DNA of 64,000 bases from an uncultured Candidatus Saccharibacteria bacterium. GTDB taxonomy: Bacteria > Patescibacteriota > Minisyncoccia > Phycocordibacterales > Phycocordibacteraceae. The position numbers and the translations under genes were made by a program. Below the pieces are notes generated by a model, which did not search any database, was not told where the DNA came from, and worked only from the letters and a program-made list of their open reading frames with translations. Below, piece after piece: positions 332-64,000 of the stretch (positions within the stretch are counted from its first letter, which is position 1; each line of letters begins with the position of its first letter). The DNA is taken from assembly GCA_964546795.1 (NCBI GenBank), contig CAZJKG010000002.1, positions 6,307-70,306 of the forward strand. The letters run 5' to 3'.

Positions 332-2394
332 GAACCAGAAAGCGGTTTGCGAGCGCGGGGCTTACGGGCCTTTGGTCCGGTGCCTTCCAGTTTGTATATC
401 TCGTCGCGGATGAGCGCGGCGGTTTCAAAATCAAGTTTTTCTACCGCCTCTTCCATCTCTTCTCGCTTTCGCTTGATGAACGCTTGAGGGTCGTCCTTGT
501 ACGCGAGCGTATCCAAGACGAGGAGTTCATCAATCGTGCGTTGATGCTCTGTGCGCATGGATGCGGCGATGTCATGGATCTCTTTCTTTATTGTTTTCGG
601 AGTGATGCTGTGCTTCTTGTTGTAGGCGACCTGGAGGGTGCGGCGGCGATTCGTCTCGCCGATGGCTCTTTCGAGCGAACCAGTCATGGAGTCGGCATAG
701 AGAATGACACGTCCGAGCACGTTGCGTGCCGCGCGTCCGATGGTTTGTATCAAACTGGTCTCGGAGCGCAGGAATCCCTCTTTGTCGGCGTCCAAGATGC
801 CGATAAGTTCAACTTCAGGCAGGTCTAGTCCCTCGCGCAAGAGATTAACGCCGACCAAGATGTCGAACTTCCCTCTGCGGAAATTGCTGAGGATATCAAT
901 GCGGTCAATCGTCTTCACATCCGAGTGGAGATATTCGGCCTTTATGCCGCGCTCCCGAAAGAATGCGGAAAGATCTTCCGCCATCCGTTTGGTAAGCGTC
1001 GTCGCAAGTGCGCGGCCACTGCGTTTGATGACCGTCTCTGCCTCACTGATGAAATCGGCAATCTGTCCTTTATACGTTCCTGTTTCGCTCACGGCGCGGA
1101 CGACAAGCTCGGGGTCAATGAGGCCGGTCGGGCGGATGACTTGCTCCACTATCTGCTCGGAATGCTTGCGTTCGTAGGGTCCCGGCGTCGCACTCGTATA
1201 CAATACTTGTCCGACGCGCTCCTCGAACTCTTCAAACCGGAGCGGGCGGTTGTCGCGCGCCGAAGGGAGACGGAAACCGTACTCAACAAGCACATCCTTG
1301 CGCGACTTGTCGCCCGCATACATGCCGCCTATCTGTGGAACAGTAACGTGCGATTCATCAATGACGGTAAGGAAGTTTGCAGAGCCGTCTTTCTTATGCG
1401 GGAAATAAGAAAGAAGCGTATGCGGCGGCTCCCCCGGCGCGCGCCCGTCGAAGTGGCGCGAATAATTCTCAATGCCGCTCGTATAGCCAAGTTCCTTGAT
1501 GAGCGCAAGGTCGTGGAGCGTGCGGCGCTTCAGTCGCTCGGCCTCCAAGGGCTTCTCCTCGCGCTTAAATTTCGCGAGCTGTTCTTCCAATTCAAGTTTG
1601 ATATCGATAATTGCGCGCTCGCGCTCCTCTTCACTCGTGATGAAGTGCTTCGCCGGAAAGACAAAGAGTGATTTCGGTTCTTTGACTTTCGCGCGCGAGA
1701 CCGGGTCAAGCTGATCAATATGGGCGATGTCGTCGCCATCGAACGTAACGCGATAGATTGCGCGTTCGTTGACAGGCATGAATTCAAGCGAATTCCCGAT
1801 GGCGCGCAGTTGCCCGGGGTTGAGGTCGGCATTCGTTCGCTCAAAATAAATTCCCACGAGTTTTCTGATGAGTCCTCCCCTGCCTCCTGCTACTGTCTCC
1901 TGCTTCTGAATTTTGACATGCACTTTCTCATATTCCTCCGGCGAGCCAAGGCCATAGATGGCGGAGACCGATGCGACGATGATGACATCCTTGCGCGTGA
2001 GGAGCGCTTGCGTCGCAGCGTGCCGCAAACGGTCTATCTCTGCATTTATCATCGCTTCTTTCTCGATGTACGTATCTGAGTGCGCGATGTACGCTTCTGG
2101 CTGATAATAGTCGTAATAGGAAACGAAATAATGTACGGCATTCTCGGGAAAAAATTCCCGATATTCTTGCGCAAGCTGCGCCGCAAGTGTCTTGTTATGA
2201 GCGAGCACAAGCGTCGGTTTGTCGTGCGAAGCTATGACATTCGCTACGGTAAACGTCTTTCCGCTTCCGGTCACGCCAAAAAGAGTCTGGTGCCGCAAAC
2301 CGCGCTCGAGACCCTGCGCAAGCGCCTTGATGGCCTCGGGCTGATCCCCCGCAGGAAGAAATGGGGTGTGTAGTTTGAAATCGCTCTTGTTCAT
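328..2394 (-). CDS. uvrB: Excinuclease ABC subunit B (UvrB)
   Basis: 688 aa. N-terminal Walker A 'GVTGSGKTFT', helicase motifs, and a C-terminal UVR motif 'AALIRDEIYKLEG'. Typical UvrB length and architecture. Confidence 0.95.
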   Translation of the reverse strand: MNKSDFKLHTPFLPAGDQPEAIKALAQGLERGLRHQTLFGVTGSGKTFTVANVIASHDKPTLVLAHNKTLAAQLAQEYREFFPENAVHYFVSYYDYYQPEAYIAHSDTYIEKEAMINAEIDRLRHAATQALLTRKDVIIVASVSAIYGLGSPEEYEKVHVKIQKQETVAGGRGGLIRKLVGIYFERTNADLNPGQLRAIGNSLEFMPVNERAIYRVTFDGDDIAHIDQLDPVSRAKVKEPKSLFVFPAKHFITSEEERERAIIDIKLELEEQLAKFKREEKPLEAERLKRRTLHDLALIKELGYTSGIENYSRHFDGRAPGEPPHTLLSYFPHKKDGSANFLTVIDESHVTVPQIGGMYAGDKSRKDVLVEYGFRLPSARDNRPLRFEEFEERVGQVLYTSATPGPYERKHSEQIVEQVIRPTGLIDPELVVRAVSETGTYKGQIADFISEAETVIKRSGRALATTLTKRMAEDLSAFFRERGIKAEYLHSDVKTIDRIDILSNFRRGKFDILVGVNLLREGLDLPEVELIGILDADKEGFLRSETSLIQTIGRAARNVLGRVILYADSMTGSLERAIGETNRRRTLQVAYNKKHSITPKTIKKEIHDIAASMRTEHQRTIDELLVLDTLAYKDDPQAFIKRKREEMEEAVEKLDFETAALIRDEIYKLEGTGPKARKPRARKPLSGS

Positions 2395-2489
2395 AAGCGC
2401 GTCATTCTATCACTTCTTGCCCGTGAGATGCCGCTTCGGCTATCTCACCGGGGTCCCCCGCCGGAGGCCATGGTGTATGGAGCTTGAAA

Positions 2490-3704
2490 TTAGCCACGGT
2501 ATTCACGAAGGAATTCTGCACGATACTCATCAAATCGTCCATCGAGGATGGCCTGCCGCGCTCCGGAGACGAGGTTCAAAATGAAGCCAACGTTATGCAT
2601 GGAGGCGATGATGGCTCCAAGCATTTCCCCTGAACGCAACAGATGCGCCACATACGCCCGTGTGAAATGTGGACTTCGTAAGTCCACATGTTCCTCAAGT
2701 GAGGTGAAGTCGGTGCGATATTTTTCATTCTTTAAGTGAATGAGACCATGCTTTGTGTAGATGGAGCCATGGCGGCCGAGGCGTGTTGCAGCGACACAGT
2801 CAAAAAGGTCCATGCCATTCGCGATACCTTCCAGAATGTCGCCCGGCTCGCCGATGCCGAGAAAATGCCGTGGCAACTCTTCGGGAAGTTCCTCTATCGC
2901 AGCAATAAGTGCGCCGCGCATATCCTCCTTGGAGAAGGAACCGCCGATGCCGATGCCGTCAAAGCCGAGCGAGGATATCTCACGCGCTGATTCTTTGCGC
3001 AGATCCTCATGTCGACCTCCCTGCACGATACCGAATAGTGCCTGCCGCTTGTTCGCGTCCATATTTTGCCGGTGCGCTGTAAGGGAGCGCGCCGCCCAAC
3101 GATGCGTACGCTCCATCGCCTCCCGCTGATACTCATAGGGAGCTGTCGGCGAGGTACATTCGTCAAACGCAAAGAACATATCCGCGCCAAGCGCGTGCTG
3201 GATCTCTACCGAACGCTCGGGCGTGAAGCGGTGCAACGAGCCGTCGAGATGCGAAGTGAAAGAAACTCCCTCGTCATCAATGACCGCAAGCTGTCCATGC
3301 TGGCTAAGAACATCTTCATCATACACTGCGACCGACTCTTCTTTGGAAGCATTCTCTTTGATGAATTTGGAGATGGTCTTCCCGAACGCGGCGCCAAGCG
3401 AAAAAACCTGAAAACCGCCGGAGTCAGTCATGGTAGGGCCATCCCAGCCCATGAATGTTCCGAGACCGCCGGCCCCTTGCACGACTTTTTCGCCCGGTTG
3501 AAGATAGAGATGGTAGGTGTTCGCAAGTACGACTTCGGCGCCGAGCCGCTTCAATTGTTCGGGAAGAATGCCTTTTACATTTGCTTTGGTACCCACCGGC
3601 GCAAAAGCGGGTGTGTGAATATCGCCGTGAGACGTAGCGAGTACGCCCGCACGCGCGGCGCTTCGCGCCGCGCGCTTCTCTATTTTAAAATCAATCGCAC
3701 TCAT
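2490..3704 (-). CDS. tgt: Queuine tRNA-ribosyltransferase (tRNA-guanine transglycosylase)
   Basis: 404 aa. N-terminus 'FKIEKRAARSAARAGVLATSHGDIHTPAFAPVGT' and internal 'LYLQPGE' match the Tgt family. Confidence 0.9.
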   Translation of the reverse strand: MSAIDFKIEKRAARSAARAGVLATSHGDIHTPAFAPVGTKANVKGILPEQLKRLGAEVVLANTYHLYLQPGEKVVQGAGGLGTFMGWDGPTMTDSGGFQVFSLGAAFGKTISKFIKENASKEESVAVYDEDVLSQHGQLAVIDDEGVSFTSHLDGSLHRFTPERSVEIQHALGADMFFAFDECTSPTAPYEYQREAMERTHRWAARSLTAHRQNMDANKRQALFGIVQGGRHEDLRKESAREISSLGFDGIGIGGSFSKEDMRGALIAAIEELPEELPRHFLGIGEPGDILEGIANGMDLFDCVAATRLGRHGSIYTKHGLIHLKNEKYRTDFTSLEEHVDLRSPHFTRAYVAHLLRSGEMLGAIIASMHNVGFILNLVSGARQAILDGRFDEYRAEFLREYRG

Positions 3705-5336: not shown

Positions 5337-7352
5337 TTATTTTATAAGTGCCTTAAATTCATCCGGTTCCGGTGCTTTCATAAAGGATTTGAAGAAACCA
5401 AAGAAACCGCTTGTTTGCACCGGTGCCCCAGGAGTCATCTCGCCTCCAACGAGATGCCAAGGAATACGGTATTTTCCATCACTATCAGTACCATAGATGA
5501 TGCTTTTCGGATGTTCCGCGAGATATTTCTGAATTAAAGAACCCTGATCTGCGAAGGAGCCACCATGAATGAATAGGTGTTTGACTCCCGGATCAGTATA
5601 AATGTGAGGATTGTCGATTGATATCGCGAGGCCAGAATTATTTACGATAATATCCTCGCCGCGTATGCTTCCTACAGGAAATTCTGACTCACTGGTGACG
5701 GTAGTTGGAGGCGCTGTAATGGATTCTGGTGCTGGAGGCGAAATTGAATCTGTTGTATTTAATTTTTCCTTGAGCCAATCTGAAAATTCTTCGAAAAGAC
5801 CTTTTTCTTGGGGAGGTCCGGGAGGCCATGCACCTATTTCTCTCGGATCGCGTATTCCTTTCTTTATTAGGTCATCATAATCCTTTGCTTCTTGCTCGGA
5901 CGCAAATGAATGTCCATTGGCGTCGCGTCCGAATGGGGCCTCCGGACTTACTTTCCCGGCCCCTTGAGCTTCTGGACCTTCGTCTATTTTCTCTGCCCCC
6001 GACGTGTCCCCTTCTATATTCTGCTGACCAGTTATTTCTCCCGTGTTCTTTGGAACATTTTGTTGTAAATTCTCCTGCACTATTTCGGCCCTCAATGCTT
6101 CATCTGCCTTGAAATCTGGATTTTCCAATTTGGCCCTGAATCTGTCCGCTTCGATTTTATTCAAAGCATCGTTCAGTTCCTGGTGTGCATTAAGATCGGC
6201 ATTCACTTCAGCTTTCAGTTCTTCCAGACCTTTAGCTTCAGAGGAAACCGTCTCATTTTCAACCGGAGAAATATCGTTACCGTAATCAGTCACCGCCTTG
6301 TCGATAGTGACTTGCTGTTCAGAAGCTAATTTTTGAGCTTCATCCAGAGTTTGCTTAACATCGGCAAACGCGCGATCTGTCGCAACTCGTGCTTCTGCCA
6401 ATTCGACGGCTGATGTATCGGGAGTGGACATTTCCGGCGTTGGTGTTTCCGCCGGCGCGGGAGCCGGTGATGTGTCAGGAATTCTTGGCTTTGTGAGTCC
6501 GGTATCTATTGGAGGAGCATCGGGCCCAAGTATGTTGCCAAGCCATTCATTCACCTTGAGCGTATTCAGAACTTCAACACCTTCGTGAACGACGAGTGCT
6601 GTACCTCCCATATATACTGCGGTGAGTATGGTCGCATACGTATTTTTGACTCGTTCCGACTTTCCTGCGAGCCAATAATCCTCTTTCGCTGCTATTTTTG
6701 CATCAAGCTTTTTCCGCTGGTTCATCGCGAAACCAATGCCGCCAAGCGCTCGCTGTCCGTACAACGCCACACTTAATATTCCGGAGAGAGTAGGTAACGT
6801 TATTGACGTAAGAGAAACACCAACAACGAGCGCGCTAGTGATGGTAAGTTTTGTCCTCCAATCCAACTTATTATATCGCTCGCTAGTAGCACCAATAAAT
6901 CCCGCCACTTTGGGACCATATTCTTTCGCCTTTTCCTGTAGACCATTTGAGCGCTCTGCAAGATATGCTTTTAAACGTTCGGTACGCTCTCCCATTTTAA
7001 GATGCTCTTTTGCACTCCCGGAAAATCCACTCAATTTCTCGCTCCACTCTTCTATCTTCGTGCCAACATCCTTGGAACGTTCTGAGAGATATTTCTTCAA
7101 ACCCTCAATTCGTAAAAGTCCCTCTTGCTTAGCTGTTTCGTAACGCTCTGTCGCACCCTCGATGAGCACACGCAATTTGTTGAGATGTTCTCTACGCGTA
7201 CTATCGTCGCTCTGAACTTTTTGTGGGCGTTCTAACTCAGGTACTCGCGGTTCTGAACCGATTATTCCTGCGAGATGGCGTGCGGCAAGCTTGTAATCGA
7301 TTTCTTCTTTTTTAGAATCTTTTTCTGGAGGTGGAAACCCAGGTTCTTTCAT
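5337..7352 (-). CDS. Large membrane/coiled-coil protein, probable partner of the downstream T4SS-like ATPase
   Basis: 671 aa. N-terminal coiled-coil region, two or three TM helices (for example 'LTITSALVVGVSLTSITLPTLSGILSVALYG'), a Pro-rich linker, an acidic coiled-coil and a conserved-looking C-terminal domain. Its start is 4 bp from the end of the ATPase gene (7357), on the same strand. Confidence 0.45.
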   Translation of the reverse strand: MKEPGFPPPEKDSKKEEIDYKLAARHLAGIIGSEPRVPELERPQKVQSDDSTRREHLNKLRVLIEGATERYETAKQEGLLRIEGLKKYLSERSKDVGTKIEEWSEKLSGFSGSAKEHLKMGERTERLKAYLAERSNGLQEKAKEYGPKVAGFIGATSERYNKLDWRTKLTITSALVVGVSLTSITLPTLSGILSVALYGQRALGGIGFAMNQRKKLDAKIAAKEDYWLAGKSERVKNTYATILTAVYMGGTALVVHEGVEVLNTLKVNEWLGNILGPDAPPIDTGLTKPRIPDTSPAPAPAETPTPEMSTPDTSAVELAEARVATDRAFADVKQTLDEAQKLASEQQVTIDKAVTDYGNDISPVENETVSSEAKGLEELKAEVNADLNAHQELNDALNKIEADRFRAKLENPDFKADEALRAEIVQENLQQNVPKNTGEITGQQNIEGDTSGAEKIDEGPEAQGAGKVSPEAPFGRDANGHSFASEQEAKDYDDLIKKGIRDPREIGAWPPGPPQEKGLFEEFSDWLKEKLNTTDSISPPAPESITAPPTTVTSESEFPVGSIRGEDIIVNNSGLAISIDNPHIYTDPGVKHLFIHGGSFADQGSLIQKYLAEHPKSIIYGTDSDGKYRIPWHLVGGEMTPGAPVQTSGFFGFFKSFMKAPEPDEFKALIK

Positions 7353-7356
7353 AGGG

Positions 7357-21581: not shown

Positions 21582-22304
21582 TTATTTTCCCTGCAGGGCC
21601 AGATCAATAAGTTGTTTCACCGCAGAGTACGGCTGCGCTCCGGAGAGCGGATATTTTTTTCCGTTCTTTGCAATCACAATGCTCCATGGTGTTCCGTTTC
21701 CGCCCGTTGCCGCGGCATTTTGTACATCTTCCTCAATATGCTTGGTGAATTTCCCGCTAGTCAGACAGGTATTGAACTTCGCCATATCAAGACCTACGTA
21801 TGCGGCTATCTTGAGGAGCTCGGCCGGATCTAGTCCGTTATTGGAGGGGGTTACTTCATAGAGGCGATCCGTGTAGGTCCAGAATGGGTTGTTGCCCCCT
21901 TGATCGCCGGCGCATTCAAGAGCGACCGTTTCATTCCGTGCCTTTGGGTGGAGTTGGTCCAAAGGGAAATGACGATAGACCCATGCAACTCTTCCGTCCT
22001 TGCCGTATTCATCCATGACTTGCTTCATGGTCTCGTGGAATCGTTTGCAGAAAGGACATTCAGGATCCGAGTATTCAACTATTTTGACCGGCGCATCAGG
22101 ATTGCCTCGAATATGGTCGGCGGCGCTTATCGGCCTCATCTTATCCAAATCGCTTGTCTGCGGCGCCCCTGCCGCCGCTTGGGGCTGCGCCGCCGGAATG
22201 GTTGTAGAACTACCGTGGAAAAATATGGCACCGGCGATGAGAACTCCGGCGATAATGATGGCCGAAGAAATTGATATATTGCTTTGCTTTGAACCTGTTT
22301 CCAT
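21582..22304 (-). CDS. DsbA-family thiol:disulfide oxidoreductase (third copy in window)
   Basis: TM anchor plus active site 'YSDPECPFCKRFHE' in a DsbA fold. Confidence 0.8.
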   Translation of the reverse strand: METGSKQSNISISSAIIIAGVLIAGAIFFHGSSTTIPAAQPQAAAGAPQTSDLDKMRPISAADHIRGNPDAPVKIVEYSDPECPFCKRFHETMKQVMDEYGKDGRVAWVYRHFPLDQLHPKARNETVALECAGDQGGNNPFWTYTDRLYEVTPSNNGLDPAELLKIAAYVGLDMAKFNTCLTSGKFTKHIEEDVQNAAATGGNGTPWSIVIAKNGKKYPLSGAQPYSAVKQLIDLALQGK

Positions 22305-43507: not shown

Positions 43508-44515
43508 TTAGACGGTAAAACCGCTAACCGAATACAGTTCGTCATCATTGGATTCCTCGGAAGCAGCTGGAGGAATTGGGTCACTCAAAAGTTGTGTGGT
43601 ATTCGGAAAGACGGGCATAGATGTATTCTTTCCCGAAACGGCTTCTGAGGTCGGAGGATTCGATTCGCGAAGCGCTGAATGTTCCGCGAGCGATGCGGCC
43701 AGATGCAAAAGGTCATCAGGCGAAAAGAAATCAATGACGAGACGACCGCCCTCGGCATTACTCTCAATAATGACGCGCGTGCCGAGTGTCTCGGTCAACG
43801 ACTTCTCGAGTTCAACCATTTCAGGCGTTTTCCGGTGATGGGTCCGCACCCGCTCTTGCGCTATGGACCGTGCGATATGCTCGGCAGCGCGGACCGAAAG
43901 CCGCTTCAAGATAATTTCTTTAAAAAGTGTCTCGCGCTCTTGCGGCCGGCTGTTGAGCGCGAGAAGCGGCCGCGCATGACCCTCGCTCATTTCCTTCCCC
44001 ACGATGGCACCCTGCATGTGCTCGGGCAATGAAAGGAGGCGAAGCGAATTTGAGACATATTCGCGGCTCTTGCCGATCTTCGCCGCGGTCTCGGCATGCG
44101 ATATACCGAATTCGTCAATAAGCTTCTGGAGCGCCTTCGCCCTGTCGATGGCGTTGAGGTCTTCGCGTTGGAGATTTTCTATGATAGCGAGTTCGAGCTT
44201 GGTGAGATTGTTTTCCCCGTGCCGGATAACCACTGGTATCTGAGTGAGGCCAGCGAGTCGACTCGCACGCAAACGCCGCTCGCCGGCTATGAGCTCATAC
44301 ACGCTCTCAAGGCCGCCTTCCGGCTTCTCCACATCGGTACGGCTGACGACAAGCGGCTGCAGCACGCCATACTGGCGGATGCTCTCCGCGAGGGATTTGA
44401 TGCCTTCTTCGTTGAACTCGCGGCGCGGCTGATACGGGTTTGGTTGTATCCGTTCAAGCTCTATCCAAAAGACCGAGTCGTATTTTGTCGGAACGTAGCG
44501 CGCATCATCCTTCAT
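43508..44515 (-). CDS. parB: ParB/Spo0J-family partition protein
   Basis: 'PYQPRREFNEEGIKSLAESIRQYGVLQPLVV...YELIAGERRLRASRLAGL' is the ParB box II/III. The track ORF extends to 44635 over tRNA-Leu, so the real start is the internal 'MKDDARY' at ~44515. Confidence 0.85.
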   Translation of the reverse strand: MKDDARYVPTKYDSVFWIELERIQPNPYQPRREFNEEGIKSLAESIRQYGVLQPLVVSRTDVEKPEGGLESVYELIAGERRLRASRLAGLTQIPVVIRHGENNLTKLELAIIENLQREDLNAIDRAKALQKLIDEFGISHAETAAKIGKSREYVSNSLRLLSLPEHMQGAIVGKEMSEGHARPLLALNSRPQERETLFKEIILKRLSVRAAEHIARSIAQERVRTHHRKTPEMVELEKSLTETLGTRVIIESNAEGGRLVIDFFSPDDLLHLAASLAEHSALRESNPPTSEAVSGKNTSMPVFPNTTQLLSDPIPPAASEESNDDELYSVSGFTV

Positions 44516-44552
44516 GTAAAAGATTTTAGCATATGTTACTCTGCAATCTATT

Positions 44553-44634
44553 GCCGGGGTGGCGGAATTGGTAGACGCAACGGATTCAAGACCCGTCGTC
44601 GTAAGACATGAGAGTTCGATTCTCTCCCCCGGCA
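44553..44634 (+). tRNA. tRNA-Leu (anticodon CAA), long variable arm
   Basis: GCCGGGG-TG-GCGG-AATTGGTAGA-CGCA-ACGGA-TTCAAGA-CCCGT-[CGTCGTAAGACATG]-AGAG-TTCGATT-CTCT-CCCCGGC-A. CCA is not encoded. Confidence 0.8.
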
Positions 44635-44641
44635 CAGGGGT

Positions 44642-46882: not shown

Positions 46883-47758
46883 ATGATACCATCGTGCGCA
46901 ATGGTGAGGCAAATTTTATGCATAATCGGCCCGACCGCCTCCGGGAAATCTTCTCGCGCGGTCGAGGAAGCCCTCGTTCGCAACGGCGAGATTATCTCAG
47001 TTGATTCGCGACAAGTATACCGCGGACTTGATATCGGCACTGAGAAAATTACTCCCGAGAAAATGTGTGGGATTCCTCACCACCTTATTGATATCCGTAA
47101 TCCGAAGGAGAATTATTCCGCCGGAGATTTTGTCGCGGATGCGACTCGCCTCATTAAGGATATTTCGGCTCGTGGGAAGCTCCCCATCCTTGTCGGAGGA
47201 ACGCATTTTTATTTCCACGCGCTTCTCCATGGCCTTCCGATGGGAATCGATGCAAATCCCCTGCTTCGCGAAGAACTTGAAACACTTTCCGCGGAAGAGC
47301 TCTATGCGCGCGTCCGCCTGGCGGACGCGCGCCGGGCTGCGGAATTGGATTCCAAGAATCGCCGCCGACTCATCCGCGCCCTTGAAATCATTGTCTCCCT
47401 TGGCACCGTCCCACCGCGCAGCTTAACTGCAACTTCATTTGGTACAAGGTTGAACCTTGTAAAATATGTTGTTGAATGGATAGTGATTGACCCACCAAAA
47501 GAGGAATTGAGCGCAAGAATAGACGCGCGGTTAGAAAGCGCACTTGCACGCGGACTTATTGATGAGGTACGACGTGTGCGCGAAGCGGTCGGTGATACGC
47601 GACTGAATGAACTGGGGCTTGAATATAAAATAGTGGGCGAGTTTTTGCGCGGAGAACGCACTGAAGCATCGCTTCTTCCGGCTCTCTCGGCAAAACTCTG
47701 GCAGTATGCACGACGCCAAAAGGCGTGGCTACGCAAACTAGGACATCGGATGTCCTAG
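46883..47758 (+). CDS. miaA: tRNA dimethylallyltransferase
   Basis: P-loop 'IIGPTASGKSS' and 'DSRQVYRGLDIGTEKIT...IPHHLIDI'. Confidence 0.85.
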   Translation: MIPSCAMVRQILCIIGPTASGKSSRAVEEALVRNGEIISVDSRQVYRGLDIGTEKITPEKMCGIPHHLIDIRNPKENYSAGDFVADATRLIKDISARGKLPILVGGTHFYFHALLHGLPMGIDANPLLREELETLSAEELYARVRLADARRAAELDSKNRRRLIRALEIIVSLGTVPPRSLTATSFGTRLNLVKYVVEWIVIDPPKEELSARIDARLESALARGLIDEVRRVREAVGDTRLNELGLEYKIVGEFLRGERTEASLLPALSAKLWQYARRQKAWLRKLGHRMS

Positions 47759-49092
47759 TTTGCGTCTTTTATTTTATTATAGTATTGGCTAACCTTAGTA
47801 ACATAATTTCTCGTTTCGATATAACCCGTATTGGGAATAGTGTGTGCCTTATTATCCCATTCGCACTGCCATCTTGAAGAATTGGGGCAATCTCGGCTTG
47901 GTTTATTAGCTCCCGGGCCGCCATTATAGGCGGCGATGATTTTATTTACATCGCCATCATATTTGGCGGACAAATTCTTGAGATAAGCCGTACCGAGTTT
48001 AACATTGTAAACATGATCTGTTAATAATTTTTCTCTAACCTGAGCGTCCGATAAATTCTTCAGTGCTTCTTTATCGACCTCTCGCGCAGTATCAATTCTG
48101 ATCTGCATACGTCCTAAGGACTCTGTACCATCTCTGGCGGTATTAATGATATGATCATCTTTCCTGTTAGATGATTCCGTTTGAATAATAGCTTTCACTA
48201 AATCTGGATCTACGCCATTAATACGTGTTGGTTGCGCAGGTGCGGACGAAGGTGATGGAGTGGGCGATGTCGGGGCCGGTTCCGACGTTTGTTTACTTTG
48301 TTCATCAATTACCTGTTGTACTAAATTACTCGCTTCTGGAGCAATAGGGTCTGTATCTGTATAAGGAGGTTCAGGGGGTTTTTGCTTTAAGCCATCAGTT
48401 TCTGGCACACTTTTGAAAGCAGGTGTGCTAATAGTAACTCCGTCTTCTTTAGTATAACAATTACCATCATCGTCACAAGAAAAACCGTCGAGCGTGGCTA
48501 TTGCCACCGATCTCTGAGCGGGAGTAGCTGGTAAAATCGGTGGTTTTGAAAGTGCTGATGCGGGAGATGATGCGCTTGGTTGCTGTGCAACAGAGAGAGT
48601 CGGCGAGGCGGCTGTAGAAGGCGATGCCGATGAGGAAACCGAACCTTTCTGCTTAAGGCAGGGGTCGCTAGGGTTGCTGATGATGAGCTGCGACCACGTA
48701 GAACCGATGGAACCGGTTGGGTGATACAGGACCGCCATAATCGCATCAACGATGAGCCATCCTGAAAGCGCAATAACGATGCCGACTATTGTGTGGGTAA
48801 GAATACTCTTCGCCTCCTCTCTGCCGCTCGGGTTTACCGGATTCACCACGAAGAGGAACCCGGAATAGGCAATCATCAGTGGCGCGACGAATACGATAGC
48901 GAGCGTGATGAGCAAGCTGATGATGTTGTTGATGACAGTGACGAGCATTCCCCAACCGGCGGGACAAGCCGCATATTGTTCTGGGATAATGGGGCCGAAG
49001 AAAGGTATCCCGCCGGCGTGTGCGGCAAGAGGCACTACAAGTACGGAACTTATTATAAGCAAAGGCGCGAATGCGAGAATTCGAGAACGCAT
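47755..49092 (-). CDS. Pilin-like (TrbC/VirB2-type two-helix) N-terminal domain fused to a lytic transglycosylase (SLT/VirB1-like) domain
   Basis: N-terminus: signal peptide, then 'AACPAGWGMLVTVINNIISLLITLAIVFVAPLMIAYSGFLFVVNP...GREEAKSILTHTIVGIVIALSGWLIVDAIM'. It shares the 'hydrophobic helix – charged loop – WG..G hydrophobic helix' pattern of the pilin-like array at 61.2–63.5 kb. An S/P/T-rich linker follows. C-terminal SLT motifs: 'SLGRMQIRI...', 'GTAYLKNL' and 'AYNGGPGA'. Confidence 0.65.
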   Translation of the reverse strand: MRSRILAFAPLLIISSVLVVPLAAHAGGIPFFGPIIPEQYAACPAGWGMLVTVINNIISLLITLAIVFVAPLMIAYSGFLFVVNPVNPSGREEAKSILTHTIVGIVIALSGWLIVDAIMAVLYHPTGSIGSTWSQLIISNPSDPCLKQKGSVSSSASPSTAASPTLSVAQQPSASSPASALSKPPILPATPAQRSVAIATLDGFSCDDDGNCYTKEDGVTISTPAFKSVPETDGLKQKPPEPPYTDTDPIAPEASNLVQQVIDEQSKQTSEPAPTSPTPSPSSAPAQPTRINGVDPDLVKAIIQTESSNRKDDHIINTARDGTESLGRMQIRIDTAREVDKEALKNLSDAQVREKLLTDHVYNVKLGTAYLKNLSAKYDGDVNKIIAAYNGGPGANKPSRDCPNSSRWQCEWDNKAHTIPNTGYIETRNYVTKVSQYYNKIKDAN

Positions 49093-61204: not shown

Positions 61205-61474
61205 CTATGGCGAAATCTTGTGTATCGGTGAAATGCCGAATGTCCCAAGCGCGAGATTGATGATGCCGTACGCACCGAAGATGATGACGAGGCCGATGAG
61301 GCCCCAGAAGATAGCGCTCTTGCCCTCCTCACGCTTCCCTTCGTCCCCCGCCTGCCGGATGAACTCAAACACGCCCCACAGGAATACGACAAACGCGCCC
61401 GCGATGAGCAGCAGAATAATCGGATTGATAATCTGGACGACGACTTTCTGGAGAAACTCGTTGAGAACGGGCAT
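61205..61474 (-). CDS. TrbC/VirB2-like pilin-family small membrane protein, paralog 1 of 6
   Basis: '...INPIILLLIAGAFVVFLWGVFEFIRQAGDEGKREEGKSAIFWGLIGLVIIFGAYGIINL': two hydrophobic helices flanking a short charged loop. Confidence 0.5.
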   Translation of the reverse strand: MPVLNEFLQKVVVQIINPIILLLIAGAFVVFLWGVFEFIRQAGDEGKREEGKSAIFWGLIGLVIIFGAYGIINLALGTFGISPIHKISP

Positions 61475-61484
61475 TTATCTAATA

Positions 61485-61910
61485 TCAAATTCCAAAAGGC
61501 GCTTTCGGTATACCACCGGTTGGCGCTCCACTAGTAAAACCAGTGGTACCAGTGAGGATATTCACGAGACCCCATACCGAGATCATAACGAAAAAACCGA
61601 TGAGGCCCCAGAGCATGAGATTCTTCCCTTTCTCCCTTACCTCTTCATTGTTGGCACCCAGAATGAAGGTATCGAACGCGCCCCACAAGAACACGATGAA
61701 AGCGACTGCGAAGAGCACTGGGACAAGAACATTGTTGATAGTATTGATAACAAGCGAACCAGCAGTCGAGAGATTGGTGGGCGTTTGAGCCAAAGAAACG
61801 AGCGGTAGAGCGAATGCAGCGAGTGTTCCCGAAAATATAGCGAGGGCTTTTTTCATAGTATGGGTAAGTGGATAACGAAGTAATTGTAACGTTCCTCTAG
61901 ACAGAGTCAA
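61485..61910 (-). CDS. TrbC/VirB2-like pilin-family small membrane protein, paralog 2
   Basis: The likely start is the internal 'MKKALAIFSGTLAAFALPLVSLA' signal peptide at ~61856. Core 'LVPVLFAVAFIVFLWGAF...NEEVREKGKNLMLWGLIGFFVMISVWGLVNIL'. Confidence 0.5.
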   Translation of the reverse strand: MTLSRGTLQLLRYPLTHTMKKALAIFSGTLAAFALPLVSLAQTPTNLSTAGSLVINTINNVLVPVLFAVAFIVFLWGAFDTFILGANNEEVREKGKNLMLWGLIGFFVMISVWGLVNILTGTTGFTSGAPTGGIPKAPFGI

Positions 61911-61937
61911 CTATACCTTCCCGTCTCGTGGGGATAG

Positions 61938-62228
61938 CTACAGTTTTGGATACGGGGGCGCACCGCCGCCCGGCACGAGCCAGAACGTGGCATTAACGAT
62001 CGCCACCAACCCCCAAAGAGAAAGAATAACGACGAAGCCAATGATGCCCCAAAGGACGAACTGCCGGCCCGTCTGACGCTCGGTGTCGCTCGCCGCACCG
62101 AGAATAAAATACTTGTAGACACCCCACAGGAAAGTGATGAATGCTATGGCTATCAAGGCCGGAACGAGAAGAACATTGATGATGTAGAGGATGTCACCCC
62201 CGTATTTTTGCAAAGGCATCAAATTCAT
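61938..62228 (-). CDS. TrbC/VirB2-like pilin-family small membrane protein, paralog 3
   Basis: 'INVLLVPALIAIAFITFLWGVYKYFILGAASDTERQTGRQFVLWGIIGFVVILSLWGLVAIV'. Confidence 0.5.
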   Translation of the reverse strand: MNLMPLQKYGGDILYIINVLLVPALIAIAFITFLWGVYKYFILGAASDTERQTGRQFVLWGIIGFVVILSLWGLVAIVNATFWLVPGGGAPPYPKL

Positions 62229-62239
62229 AACAAAACAGA

Positions 62240-62743
62240 TTACCGGACCGGCGGCGGCGGTCCGAATGACGAATAGGACGTCGGTTGGGGCAGTGCAAAA
62301 GAGCCCTGAAGGCCGAATGTGTTAGCAACGACATTCACAAGTCCCCAGAGCGATATCATGACCGCAAATGCAATGAGGCCCCACAGGATGATCTTATGCC
62401 CTTCCTTCACTCTCTCGGGATCTCCTACGGAAAAAATATACGCACGGGCAATGCCATAGAGGAACACGATGAAAGAAACCGCGAAAAGGAGCGGTACCAA
62501 CACGCCATTGATGACGTTAATAATAGTAATCGCGATGCCACTAATACCATACCCTCCTCCGAATCCGCCACCAAATGGCATACCAAAGATGCCATTCGAG
62601 AAAACTTGCGACGAGTACGAACTGATGCCTGGTACCGTATAACTGGTACGCAATTCTTGTGCTGATGTGAAGATTGGCATGAGAAGCACTATGAATACTA
62701 AAGCGACACGAACGACGGGTCTCATATGCGGGAAGTATGACAC
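62240..62743 (-). CDS. TrbC/VirB2-like pilin-family small membrane protein, paralog 4 (longer Gly-rich N-terminal part)
   Basis: Signal 'MRPVVRVALVFIVLLMPIFTSAQ'. Core 'LVPLLFAVSFIVFLYGIARAYIFSVGDPERVKEGHKIILWGLIAFAVMISLWGLVNVV'. Confidence 0.5.
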   Translation of the reverse strand: MSYFPHMRPVVRVALVFIVLLMPIFTSAQELRTSYTVPGISSYSSQVFSNGIFGMPFGGGFGGGYGISGIAITIINVINGVLVPLLFAVSFIVFLYGIARAYIFSVGDPERVKEGHKIILWGLIAFAVMISLWGLVNVVANTFGLQGSFALPQPTSYSSFGPPPPVR

Positions 62744-62744
62744 A

Positions 62745-63026
62745 TCAGGCGGTCGGCGCGATGCCGAGCGTGGATAACAAGATATTCACGAATCCCCATA
62801 CCGAGAAGAGCACTACCATGCCAATAATGCCCCAGAAGACGAATTGTCGTCCTTCGGAGCGCTTCCCTTCATCGCTGCCATGGAGGAAAAAATAGTTCAC
62901 GACACCCCAGATGAAAACCGCAAAAGCGAGAGCAAAAATAACCGGTATGACGACAGTGTTGAAAAGGCCGATGATACCGATGGACCCGCCGCCAACGTAT
63001 TGAGCAAAGGTCATAATTTTGGCCAA
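62745..63026 (-). CDS. TrbC/VirB2-like pilin-family small membrane protein, paralog 5
   Basis: 'VVIPVIFALAFAVFIWGVVNYFFLHGSDEGKRSEGRQFVFWGIIGMVVLFSVWGFVNIL'. Confidence 0.5.
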   Translation of the reverse strand: MAKIMTFAQYVGGGSIGIIGLFNTVVIPVIFALAFAVFIWGVVNYFFLHGSDEGKRSEGRQFVFWGIIGMVVLFSVWGFVNILLSTLGIAPTA

Positions 63027-63035
63027 CCGGGCATA

Positions 63036-63461
63036 TTAGCCGCCAGTGGAGAGCGCTTGCACGGTCGCCTTAATACCAATGGCGATGACCTTGGCTCCGA
63101 GGAGTATGAGAGCGCCAACGACGGTCCAGAGGAGCATTTGGCGCGCTTCGGTAATTTTGCCCGGTTCGCCACGCGCGGTGACGAATTTGAACCCGACGAA
63201 AACCATCATGAGAATGACGATGACCGGACCGATGGTGTTGGTAATGATGTTCAGAATGCTCAGTAAAAACGAATTGATACTCGTACCTTCGCCGAGCGGA
63301 TTAATGAGTTTGGTGCCGGTATTTCCCCCCGGTTGAAGGAAAGAACCGCCAGTATTTCCCCCGGGAGATACTATGGCAGATTGTGCGTGCTGGGCGGGCG
63401 CAGCGCCCGCCGCGATTATAACGAAAGCGAAAACAAGAAAAAAAATAGTGAAAAAACGCAT
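63036..63461 (-). CDS. TrbC/VirB2-like pilin-family small membrane protein, paralog 6
   Basis: Signal peptide 'MRFFTIFFLVFAFVIIAAGAAPA'. Core 'IGPVIVILMMVFVGFKFVTARGEPGKITEARQMLLWTVVGALILLGAKVIAI'. Confidence 0.45.
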   Translation of the reverse strand: MRFFTIFFLVFAFVIIAAGAAPAQHAQSAIVSPGGNTGGSFLQPGGNTGTKLINPLGEGTSINSFLLSILNIITNTIGPVIVILMMVFVGFKFVTARGEPGKITEARQMLLWTVVGALILLGAKVIAIGIKATVQALSTGG

Positions 63462-63463
63462 AA

Positions 63464-64000
63464 TTATTGTTGGAGAAGAGAGCTTAAAGAGCGCGCCGCG
63501 CTCCCAAGCACATCATCGACCGTGGAACGACCGCTTATCACGCTTCCAATCATACCCGAGAAGATGCGATTAACATCGGCAGGTGATGGGGATAGCCATC
63601 CTTTGCTGTAGAGCGCTTCGGCGTACGCGACCGCGGCAATGGGATCGGAGGAGGGAATGTTGGCAAGCTGGCTCAACGTTGCGGGTGCGAGTCCGGTCGC
63701 TCCCGCAGCAAGAGTTTGTTCGGTCGCATTGCTGAAGAGCGCGGCGGCCTGATAAGCGCCGGAGGGATTCTTGGCCCCACGCGGAATCATGAATGCATAC
63801 ACGAGGCCGTAGGCGCTTTTCTCCTTGGCGGTGGCACTTTGCGGCAGAGGCGTCACGTTGAAGTTGAGGTTCGGATTTGCCTCTCGCAGATAGCGTGCAC
63901 GGGACGCGTAGCCGAGATAGAGTGCAAGATCGCCCGCTATAAACATCTGCTCGGAATCCGGCAACGAAGTATTCCAGGTGTAGGAAACCTTGGCTGGATC
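63464..64000 (-). CDS. Hypothetical secreted protein, 5'-truncated by the window edge (possibly the C-terminal part of a solute-binding protein)
   Basis: The open frame runs to the window end. Weak resemblance to the C-terminal lobe of family-1 extracellular solute-binding proteins. Confidence 0.25.
   Translation of the reverse strand, partial: DPAKVSYTWNTSLPDSEQMFIAGDLALYLGYASRARYLREANPNLNFNVTPLPQSATAKEKSAYGLVYAFMIPRGAKNPSGAYQAAALFSNATEQTLAAGATGLAPATLSQLANIPSSDPIAAVAYAEALYSKGWLSPSPADVNRIFSGMIGSVISGRSTVDDVLGSAARSLSSLLQQ

Follow-up and report, generated by a model that had tools for sequence, protein, structure and literature searches.

Can a pilin-like module of a type IV secretion system (T4SS) and a wall-cutting enzyme be parts of one protein, and what would such a protein be for? 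The question is raised by a gene on the reverse strand of a 64,000-nucleotide stretch of DNA (the window; positions 6,307 to 70,306 of contig CAZJKG010000002.1, assembly GCA_964546795.1) from an uncultured, ultra-small Candidatus Saccharibacteria bacterium. Patescibacteria, or the candidate phyla radiation (CPR), account for a large share of bacterial diversity, and those cultivated so far grow attached to other microorganisms. In the single species tested, epibiotic growth requires the T4SS and its VirB2-like pilin array (PMC10633639; PMC12857230), and the function of the T4SS and the building of pili in these bacteria are open questions (PMC12857230). The pilins are encoded in arrays of 2–11 divergent copies, and most genomes with VirB2 homologs are without VirB1 (PMC12102498); VirB2 arrays and VirB1 homologs have been handled separately (PMC12102498, PMC12857230). 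In the open-access literature, including these two papers and the Southlakia study (PMC10633639), we found no description of a VirB2-hydrolase fusion.

The original prediction, made from the letters of the window, was that one gene joins an N-terminal domain of the pilin-like type to a lytic transglycosylase (SLT) domain of the VirB1 type. Sequence, fold and comparative genomics bear out this covalent fusion, and the protein is no singular fusion as it first appeared, being a member of a clade-wide polymorphic family. The gene is complete and the parts of its product are the following, with GC3 denoting GC content at third codon positions:

47755..49092, reverse strand: the pilin-like/SLT fusion gene, an open reading frame (ORF) of 445 codons plus stop with its true start at ATG 49092 (MRSR...).
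49015..49092, reverse strand: signal peptide, residues 1–26, read from the sequence as an MRSR n-region, a hydrophobic core and an AHA cleavage motif.
48643..49014, reverse strand: pilin-like module (N-module), residues 27–150, with IPFFGPIIP, C43, helix 1 (residues 47–83), the polar loop NPVNPSGREEAK, helix 2 (residues 88–123), W133 and C145.
48229..48642, reverse strand: tether rich in S/P/T/A/Q, residues 151–288 (138 residues), 62% S/T/P/A/Q, GC3 0.30.
47758..48228, reverse strand: SLT head (GH23, family-1 lytic transglycosylase), residues 289–445, recognised by PF01464, motifs and fold.

The MRSR start is kept in nearly all homologs, and the signal-peptide residues P21, A24 and A26 are nearly invariant among them; cleavage would take place after AHA26. 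A public gene call for the identical protein (P0001) starts 19 codons further on and yields 426 residues, with most of the signal peptide (49035-49092) lost.

The N-terminus had been said to carry the same module as a pilin-like array elsewhere in the window. The array is real, and it lies at the following position:

61205..63461, reverse strand: six small T4SS_pilin paralogs, with PF18895 found in all six (26.5-40.7 bits).

When residues 1–150 of the fusion protein were compared with all 427 ORFs of the window using phmmer, five of the six array paralogs were matched, four of them at E 2e-5 to 2e-4 and one at 0.013; the sixth reached only E=0.22, and every remaining ORF of the window was no better than E=1.4. 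A profile comparison of the N-module with the six paralogs (hhalign) gave a probability of 94% and E=1.4e-7 over 68 columns that span helix 1, the loop and helix 2. The proposed domain search for SLT plus a TrbC-like N-terminus held for its first half, SLT being well above its threshold, and gave a borderline outcome for the second, PF18895 matching residues 50–118 at E=1.3e-5 and 25.6 bits, which is 1 bit below the curated cut-off of 26.6; the precomputed database annotation of P0001 lists both PF18895 (PF18895.6) and PF01464. Taken together, these comparisons indicate that the likeness of the N-module to the array pilins is specific and goes beyond generic hydrophobicity, which disposes of the idea that the region is only a generic signal peptide with a transmembrane (TM) anchor.

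The architecture of the module agrees with that of a VirB2-type hairpin. Hydropathy analysis delimits hydrophobic segments at residues 1–36, 45–86 and 96–124, and an AlphaFold2 model built on a 120-sequence alignment, with a mean predicted local distance difference test score (pLDDT) of 74, places N-terminal helices at residues 5–24 (signal peptide), 47–83 and 88–123 (the hairpin, pLDDT ~80) and a short one at 131–137. The start of the mature module after AHA26 is marked by the nearly invariant IPFFGPIIP, and C43, W133 and C145 are invariant, with one cysteine of the pair at each outer end of the hairpin. Carrying these additional conserved stretches on its N- and C-terminal sides as well as the invariant C43/C145 pair, the N-module represents, as judged from its alignments, a distinct subfamily. 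VirB2 proteins have both termini outside the membrane and the loop inside, a topology which would put the cysteines, the tether and the head of the fusion protein all on the extracytoplasmic side. A disulfide stapling C43 to C145 is plausible because three DsbA-like oxidoreductases are encoded in the window. These thioredoxin-fold proteins (12637-13314, 13326-14084 and 21582-22304, all on the reverse strand and within 10 kb) amount to an unusually rich extracytoplasmic disulfide machinery for a small genome, which fits the Cys-rich secreted heads and the C43/C145 pair.

The Ser/Pro/Thr-rich linker that had been noted is present as the 138-residue tether; it is predicted to be disordered across residues 152–223 (pLDDT <50), and it holds a small Cys-Cys hairpin (C206, C212) and a confidently modelled helix at residues 252–269. 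The C-terminal domain is equally clear, with PF01464 (SLT) matching residues 289–397 at E=1.9e-15 and 56.9 bits (cut-off 21.3) and both quoted motifs in place, GRMQI at residue 327 and AYNGG (as AYNGGPGA) at residue 388. The catalytic glutamate, on which the assignment hinged, is E306 (nucleotides 48175-48177) within IIQTESS: a profile of seven close heads, IIQ(A/T)ESS, aligns with MltC 'MQTESSFNP' and Slt 'RQES', and the inactive MltC mutant 4cfo reads QSS at the position aligned with E306, so that E306 is identified as the catalytic residue by its alignment with the MltC and Slt glutamates and by the glutamine of the inactive enzyme. The E-S, GRMQI and AYNGG motifs are invariant in the seven close heads, and the head also carries a cysteine pair, C402/C410. 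Residues 290–445 are modelled with high confidence (pLDDT ~85-96), and the best Foldseek matches, each with probability 1.0, are Pseudomonas aeruginosa Slt, Escherichia coli Slt70, MltF, Cj0843 and MltD; matches to the NCBIfam models IagB, BB0259 flagellar lytic transglycosylase and MltC are weak. The head is thus a family-1 lytic transglycosylase by sequence and fold, its catalytic residues are intact, and its activity is predicted.

How widespread the combination is was addressed by a homolog search against 5.8 billion proteins, which returned 465 matches, the best 120 of which were scanned against Pfam. The N-module is common to all of these 120 (55-70% identity, phmmer E ~1e-55 to 1e-66), and the SLT head of the window type is found in only 20 of them. 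Pfam recognised T4SS_pilin in 96 of the 120 relatives (E<0.01), SLT in 28, SLT_3 likewise in 28, Lysozyme_like in 10, VanY in 6 and CHAP in 1. A wider set of 333 cluster-50 representatives at E<=1e-10 (among 1.84 billion), nearly all ~300-450 residues long, added CHAP (8), NlpC/P60 (2), Peptidase_M15_4 and other heads; distant relatives match PF18895 at down to E=7e-13, and one of them matches TrbC. Among 145 new family representatives, 120 have at least 280 residues, the short ones end inside or just past the N-module as contig-end fragments, and no clear stand-alone version of the N-module was found. The family has at least 10 types of head, and all the recognisable ones are peptidoglycan hydrolases (SLT, SLT_3, lysozyme-like, CHAP, NlpC/P60, VanY and M15). 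In databases the proteins of the family are labelled 'pilin', 'hypothetical' or 'lytic transglycosylase domain-containing protein'.

The different heads sit at one and the same locus. Positional orthologs were identified in 73 genomes, each representing a species and labelled Kaiserbacteria, Paceibacterota or Parcubacteria, and at least seven head clusters occupy the one syntenic slot, with the order ClpB, (L33), fusion gene, convergent miaA, AhpC, ParB and RelA/SpoT holding for all seven. As the fusion is kept as a single ORF in more than 70 of these related genomes, a frameshift or an assembly artefact is excluded. The clade is a narrow one: median identities to the window are 90% for ClpB, 82% for RelA, 72% for miaA, 65% for the N-module (residues 27–150) and 74.5% for its hairpin (residues 44–125), and by these clade-wide values the N-module changes at the pace of a housekeeping gene. 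The type of head follows another course: a fraction of ~0.3 of the pairs have a head in common in every bin of N-module identity from 40 to 80%, and the nearest neighbour by N-module has the same head in only 31 of 58 cases. By these comparisons, the distribution of head types is patchy and does not follow the phylogeny of the N-module.

In the genome under study, the exchange of the head can be followed at the nucleotide level. The fusion proteins are mosaics when aligned: a close relative, P0005, is 89% identical to the window protein in the N-module and 28% in the SLT head, and proteins of a distant lineage (P0008, P0009, P0013, P0014, P0017 and P0060) are 27-36% identical in the N-module and 55-64% in the head. 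Comparison by blastn of the window with L081, the otherwise collinear contig of P0005, gave nucleotide identities of 83% for ClpB (51445-49754), 84% for L33 (49524-49327), 100% for tRNA-Trp (49332-49261), 83% for the N-module (49109-48649) and 74% for miaA/AhpC (47737-45535), and no similarity was detected by blastn for the linker and head in between (48648-47738). Two further features are thereby delimited:

47738..48648, reverse strand: replaceable cassette of linker and head, with no nucleotide similarity to L081 and of foreign composition.
47731..47765, no strand assigned: perfect palindromic hairpin of 16 bp, spanning the stop codons of the convergent fusion gene and miaA.

GC3 is only 0.30 (linker) and 0.35 (head), compared with 0.61 for the N-module and 0.50-0.63 for the genes on either side, and the same step is seen in P0002, the sister of the window protein. 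On two low-GC contigs of the distant lineage (L079 and L080), where the GC content of 40-44% is uniform along the gene, the heads are 74% and 68% identical in nucleotides to that of the window. Because the breaks in the DNA are exact, the GC3 of the segment is foreign and the head resembles those of the low-GC lineage, the linker and head of the window gene were acquired horizontally, most likely from a lineage like that of L079/L080. The hairpin, likely a bidirectional terminator shared by the two genes, coincides with the 3' edge of the exchanged cassette. A second small indel lies nearby, L081 having an extra Pfam-negative gene of 264 residues (2240-3034, reverse strand) between L33 and tRNA-Trp which is missing from the window.

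One head type comes with a companion. In 35 of the 37 loci with an SLT_3-type head, an extra co-directional ORF stands between the fusion gene and miaA (for example, in L006 at ~7031-7591, forward strand), and it also occurs at three loci that were unclassified by clustering (L037, L062 and L068). The product of ~190-220 residues combines a TM anchor with an S/T/P linker and a conserved domain, the latter ending in NLGFSFCPGA; it matches no Pfam family, occurs at no locus with another head type and has no homolog in the window. Where the head is of another type, including the window gene, miaA follows within 2-36 nucleotides and there is no downstream partner. From this distribution, the accessory ORF would look like a candidate effector-immunity or enzyme-regulator partner that travels with the SLT_3 head.

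A connection to pilin arrays is found outside the conserved slot. In the distant lineage, the pilin-like+SLT gene is situated directly downstream of a gene for a solute-binding protein (SBP) and directly upstream of small pilin genes (PF18895) that share its strand, and from this operon position it follows that such fusions are tied to pilin arrays. The order of SBP gene and then array is common to the window (61205-63964), L079 (6920-8802) and L080 (2837-5975), and the SBPs of the two lineages are only 25% identical. The corresponding gene and the sole other T4SS-type gene recognised in the window are located as follows:

63464-63964, reverse strand, running off the window: SBP gene directly before the pilin array, homologous to the SBP in L079/L080.
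7357..10233, reverse strand: VirD4/TraD-like coupling-protein ATPase of 958 residues, with Pfam matches to DUF87, TraG-D_C and TrwB_AAD_bind and NCBIfam matches to TraD and VirD4-like models that are all below the cut-off.

The six array pilins of the window are the presumed partners of the N-module. One of them also matches TrbC/VirB2, and the paralog at 61485-61910 (reverse strand) scores above the threshold of NCBIfam NF045849 (43 bits, cut-off 40), the model of the 'Mbov_0395 family pilin-like conjugal transfer protein' from Mycoplasma integrative and conjugative elements, a match which connects the arrays of Patescibacteria with a conjugation family of monoderms. The parts of the T4SS lie dispersed over the window rather than forming a single cluster. 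After the VirD4/TraD-like ATPase follows a 671-residue protein without a recognisable family, possibly a VirB6-like or other channel component; the two genes together take up 5337-10233 (reverse strand).

With moderate confidence we read the fusion as the pilin-anchored wall-cutting component of a Patescibacterial T4SS/pilus apparatus. The protein would be exported by Sec and lose its signal peptide after AHA26, and the VirB2/TrbC-like hairpin would come to lie in the membrane, its two ends on the outside, as suggested by homology and by VirB2 topology. The two outer ends would probably be stapled by the C43-C145 disulfide, judging from the invariant cysteine pair and the DsbA-like genes. The proline/serine-rich tether of 138 residues would keep the lytic transglycosylase outside the membrane; the domain order and the catalytic residues are observed. 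Through its pilin module the protein may then enter the pool of small pilins and, as a minor subunit, be drawn to the T4SS pilus or its assembly site or incorporated there, and the enzyme would cut glycan strands where the apparatus meets the cell wall. The wall in question more likely belongs to a partner or host than to the bacterium itself because the head is rapidly exchanged, and in the genome studied here was acquired horizontally, while the pilin module changes no faster than a housekeeping gene would; opening of the own wall in the manner of VirB1 is a live alternative. The original prediction had a wall-cutting domain tethered to a membrane or pilus anchor, possibly for penetration of a partner's wall, and this idea now appears better supported, since domain order and VirB2 topology would place the head outside the membrane, many peptidoglycan hydrolases are swapped as head at one locus, and the fusion gene stands first in a pilin-array operon in another lineage.

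Several observations weigh against this interpretation. In the window the fusion gene is monocistronic, with ClpB, L33, the divergent tRNA-Trp on its 5' side and the convergent miaA as neighbours and no T4SS genes among them, and it is separated by 12 kb from the pilin array and by 38 kb from the ATPase resembling type IV coupling proteins, so that an operon link is missing there. The N-module falls just below the PF18895 cut-off, the SLT-type gene of the window is without an immunity-like gene downstream, and about one-third of the heads (clusters 1, 3, 4 and 5, with His/Asp motifs) match no hydrolase families. Further, a C-terminal extension of 300 residues has no known precedent among VirB2-type pilins and might prevent them from polymerising, and pilus formation has been shown for no Patescibacterial VirB2-like protein (PMC12857230). 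A more specific proposal, which we offer tentatively and consider rather doubtful, is that of an 'evolved pilin', i.e., a minor T4SS pilus subunit in a monoderm whose exchangeable peptidoglycan-degrading warheads on a long tether breach the host wall at the contact site. If true, it would constitute a so far undescribed way for epibiotic Patescibacteria to open the host cell, the replacement of heads would follow the wall chemistry or the inhibitors of the host, and the head in the window would be a recent horizontal gain from a low-GC lineage that has the fusion in a pilin-array operon.

Parts of this design are known from other systems. VirB1-type lytic transglycosylases, such as Agrobacterium tumefaciens VirB1, P19 of R1, IagB of the type III secretion system and the flagellar enzymes, share the SLT/GH23 fold and the E-S motif with the head and are presumed, as it is, to open peptidoglycan locally for a machine that crosses the envelope. 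The VirB1 proteins are soluble and periplasmic, their genes lie within the secretion operon and, to our knowledge, they are never fused to a pilin, whereas the enzyme described here is covalently joined to a VirB2-like module and its gene lies away from other T4SS genes. Also comparable are the membrane-anchored hydrolases of Gram-positive T4SSs, PrgK (pCF10), TraG (pIP501), TcpG (pCW3) and CwlT (ICEBs1), which are required to pass the wall according to literature cited in PMC12102498. Like the fusion, they belong to a monoderm context and carry a membrane anchor at the N-terminus with modular hydrolase domains behind it (SLT/lysozyme, CHAP/NlpC-P60, LytM); however, their anchor is a generic TM segment without VirB2 homology, they usually have two catalytic domains and they are operonic with the T4SS, while the fusion has one head on a pilin-homologous two-helix anchor, and the head is replaced at a fixed chromosomal locus. 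With the VirB2/TrbC/TraA pilins and the Patescibacterial PF18895 arrays, the N-module shares the signal peptide, the two-helix hairpin and the short polar loop. Known pilins have ~70-140 residues and no enzymatic domain, in contrast to the 445 residues of the fusion with its extracellular segments, cysteine pair, tether and hydrolase, and the N-module is conserved at ~65-75% identity versus ~25% for array pilins. By analogy, the C43/C145 pair may be a disulfide counterpart of the head-to-tail cyclisation of T-pilin/TrbC. Since two defining features of pilins fail, namely, small stand-alone size and linkage to T4SS genes in this genome, the protein is called pilin-like and not a pilin. The pairing of a structural or delivery module with an exchangeable wall-degrading head recalls VgrG-3 from type VI secretion systems (T6SS), a spike with a peptidoglycan hydrolase and the immunity gene TsiV3, as well as the SLT lysins in phage tape-measure and internal proteins; here, the scaffold is a T4SS pilin-like hairpin, most head types are without an immunity-like gene, and delivery into a target cell would be hypothetical. 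By analogy, the fusion would work like PrgK, TraG, TcpG and CwlT and resembles VgrG-3 and phage virion lysins, and it is a member of none of these groups.

Other explanations for the same protein have to be weighed against a wall-cutting part of a T4SS or pilus. The fusion might be a housekeeping autolysin, i.e., the main wall-remodelling enzyme for growth, daughter-cell separation and turnover, with the pilin-derived hairpin as a mere membrane anchor and no role in a T4SS or pilus. Membrane-anchored autolysins are common in monoderm bacteria, and the gene is single-copy, clade-wide and vertically inherited within a housekeeping block (ClpB, L33, tRNA-Trp, miaA, AhpC, ParB), with its own terminator and without T4SS neighbours. 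Yet the hairpin is conserved beyond the needs of an anchor, given a median identity of 74.5% and a large number of invariant positions, among them the extracellular IPFFGPIIP as well as W133 and the cysteine pair, and homologous fusions are found inside pilin-array operons in another lineage. Repeated swaps to heads that cut different bonds, glycan or peptide, would be unusual on one invariant self substrate, as would the horizontal acquisition of a head and a head-specific accessory gene for a core autolysin, and for these reasons we think that an autolysin is unlikely.

The same exchange of heads is what a surface-displayed polymorphic antibacterial toxin would show, in which the N-module only presents a lytic 'warhead' that kills or lyses neighbours for nutrients and takes no part in T4SS or pilus assembly. 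A conserved N-terminus, a variable C-terminal enzyme and cassette exchange at one locus are the layout of polymorphic toxins, and the accessory ORF in 35 of 37 SLT_3-head loci occupies the position of an immunity gene. This ORF, however, has no recognisable family and is only a candidate immunity gene, the window gene and all other head types are without a downstream partner, and the N-module is homologous to T4SS pilins rather than to known toxin-trafficking domains; a toxin is therefore quite improbable in our view. We assign a very small probability to a domesticated phage lysis module, in which a class-II holin-like or signal-arrest-release (SAR)-type region with two TM segments would precede an endolysin. 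Its attraction is that the head repertoire (SLT, lysozyme, CHAP, NlpC/P60, VanY/M15) is that of modular phage endolysins and that the head matches endolysin and virion-lysin families in PHROG. No phage genes are found nearby, though, and the housekeeping synteny is stable in more than 70 genomes; a predicted cleavable signal peptide precedes the two helices, and the matches of the N-module are to PF18895 and to the pilins of the same genome, with no PHROG match for the N-modules of P0074 and P0053.

A further observation concerns the housekeeping block next to the fusion gene. The ORF for ParB (43508-44635, reverse strand), called with a GTG start at 44635, overruns the tRNA-Leu on the opposite strand (44553-44635, forward strand), and the real start is probably further downstream.

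For the biology of the Patescibacteria, the family links pilin-like proteins covalently to cell-wall degradation and provides a concrete candidate for the seemingly missing wall-cutting function of VirB1, a gap it could fill. It would also extend to T4SS pilins the principle of fusing structural proteins to effectors that is known from T6SS spikes and phage tails. The cassette-like turnover of heads offers a testable handle on host specificity, through the bond that is cut and the host, and the swappable wall-cutting heads suggest a wall-breaching tool linked to the host-dependent lifestyle of these bacteria.

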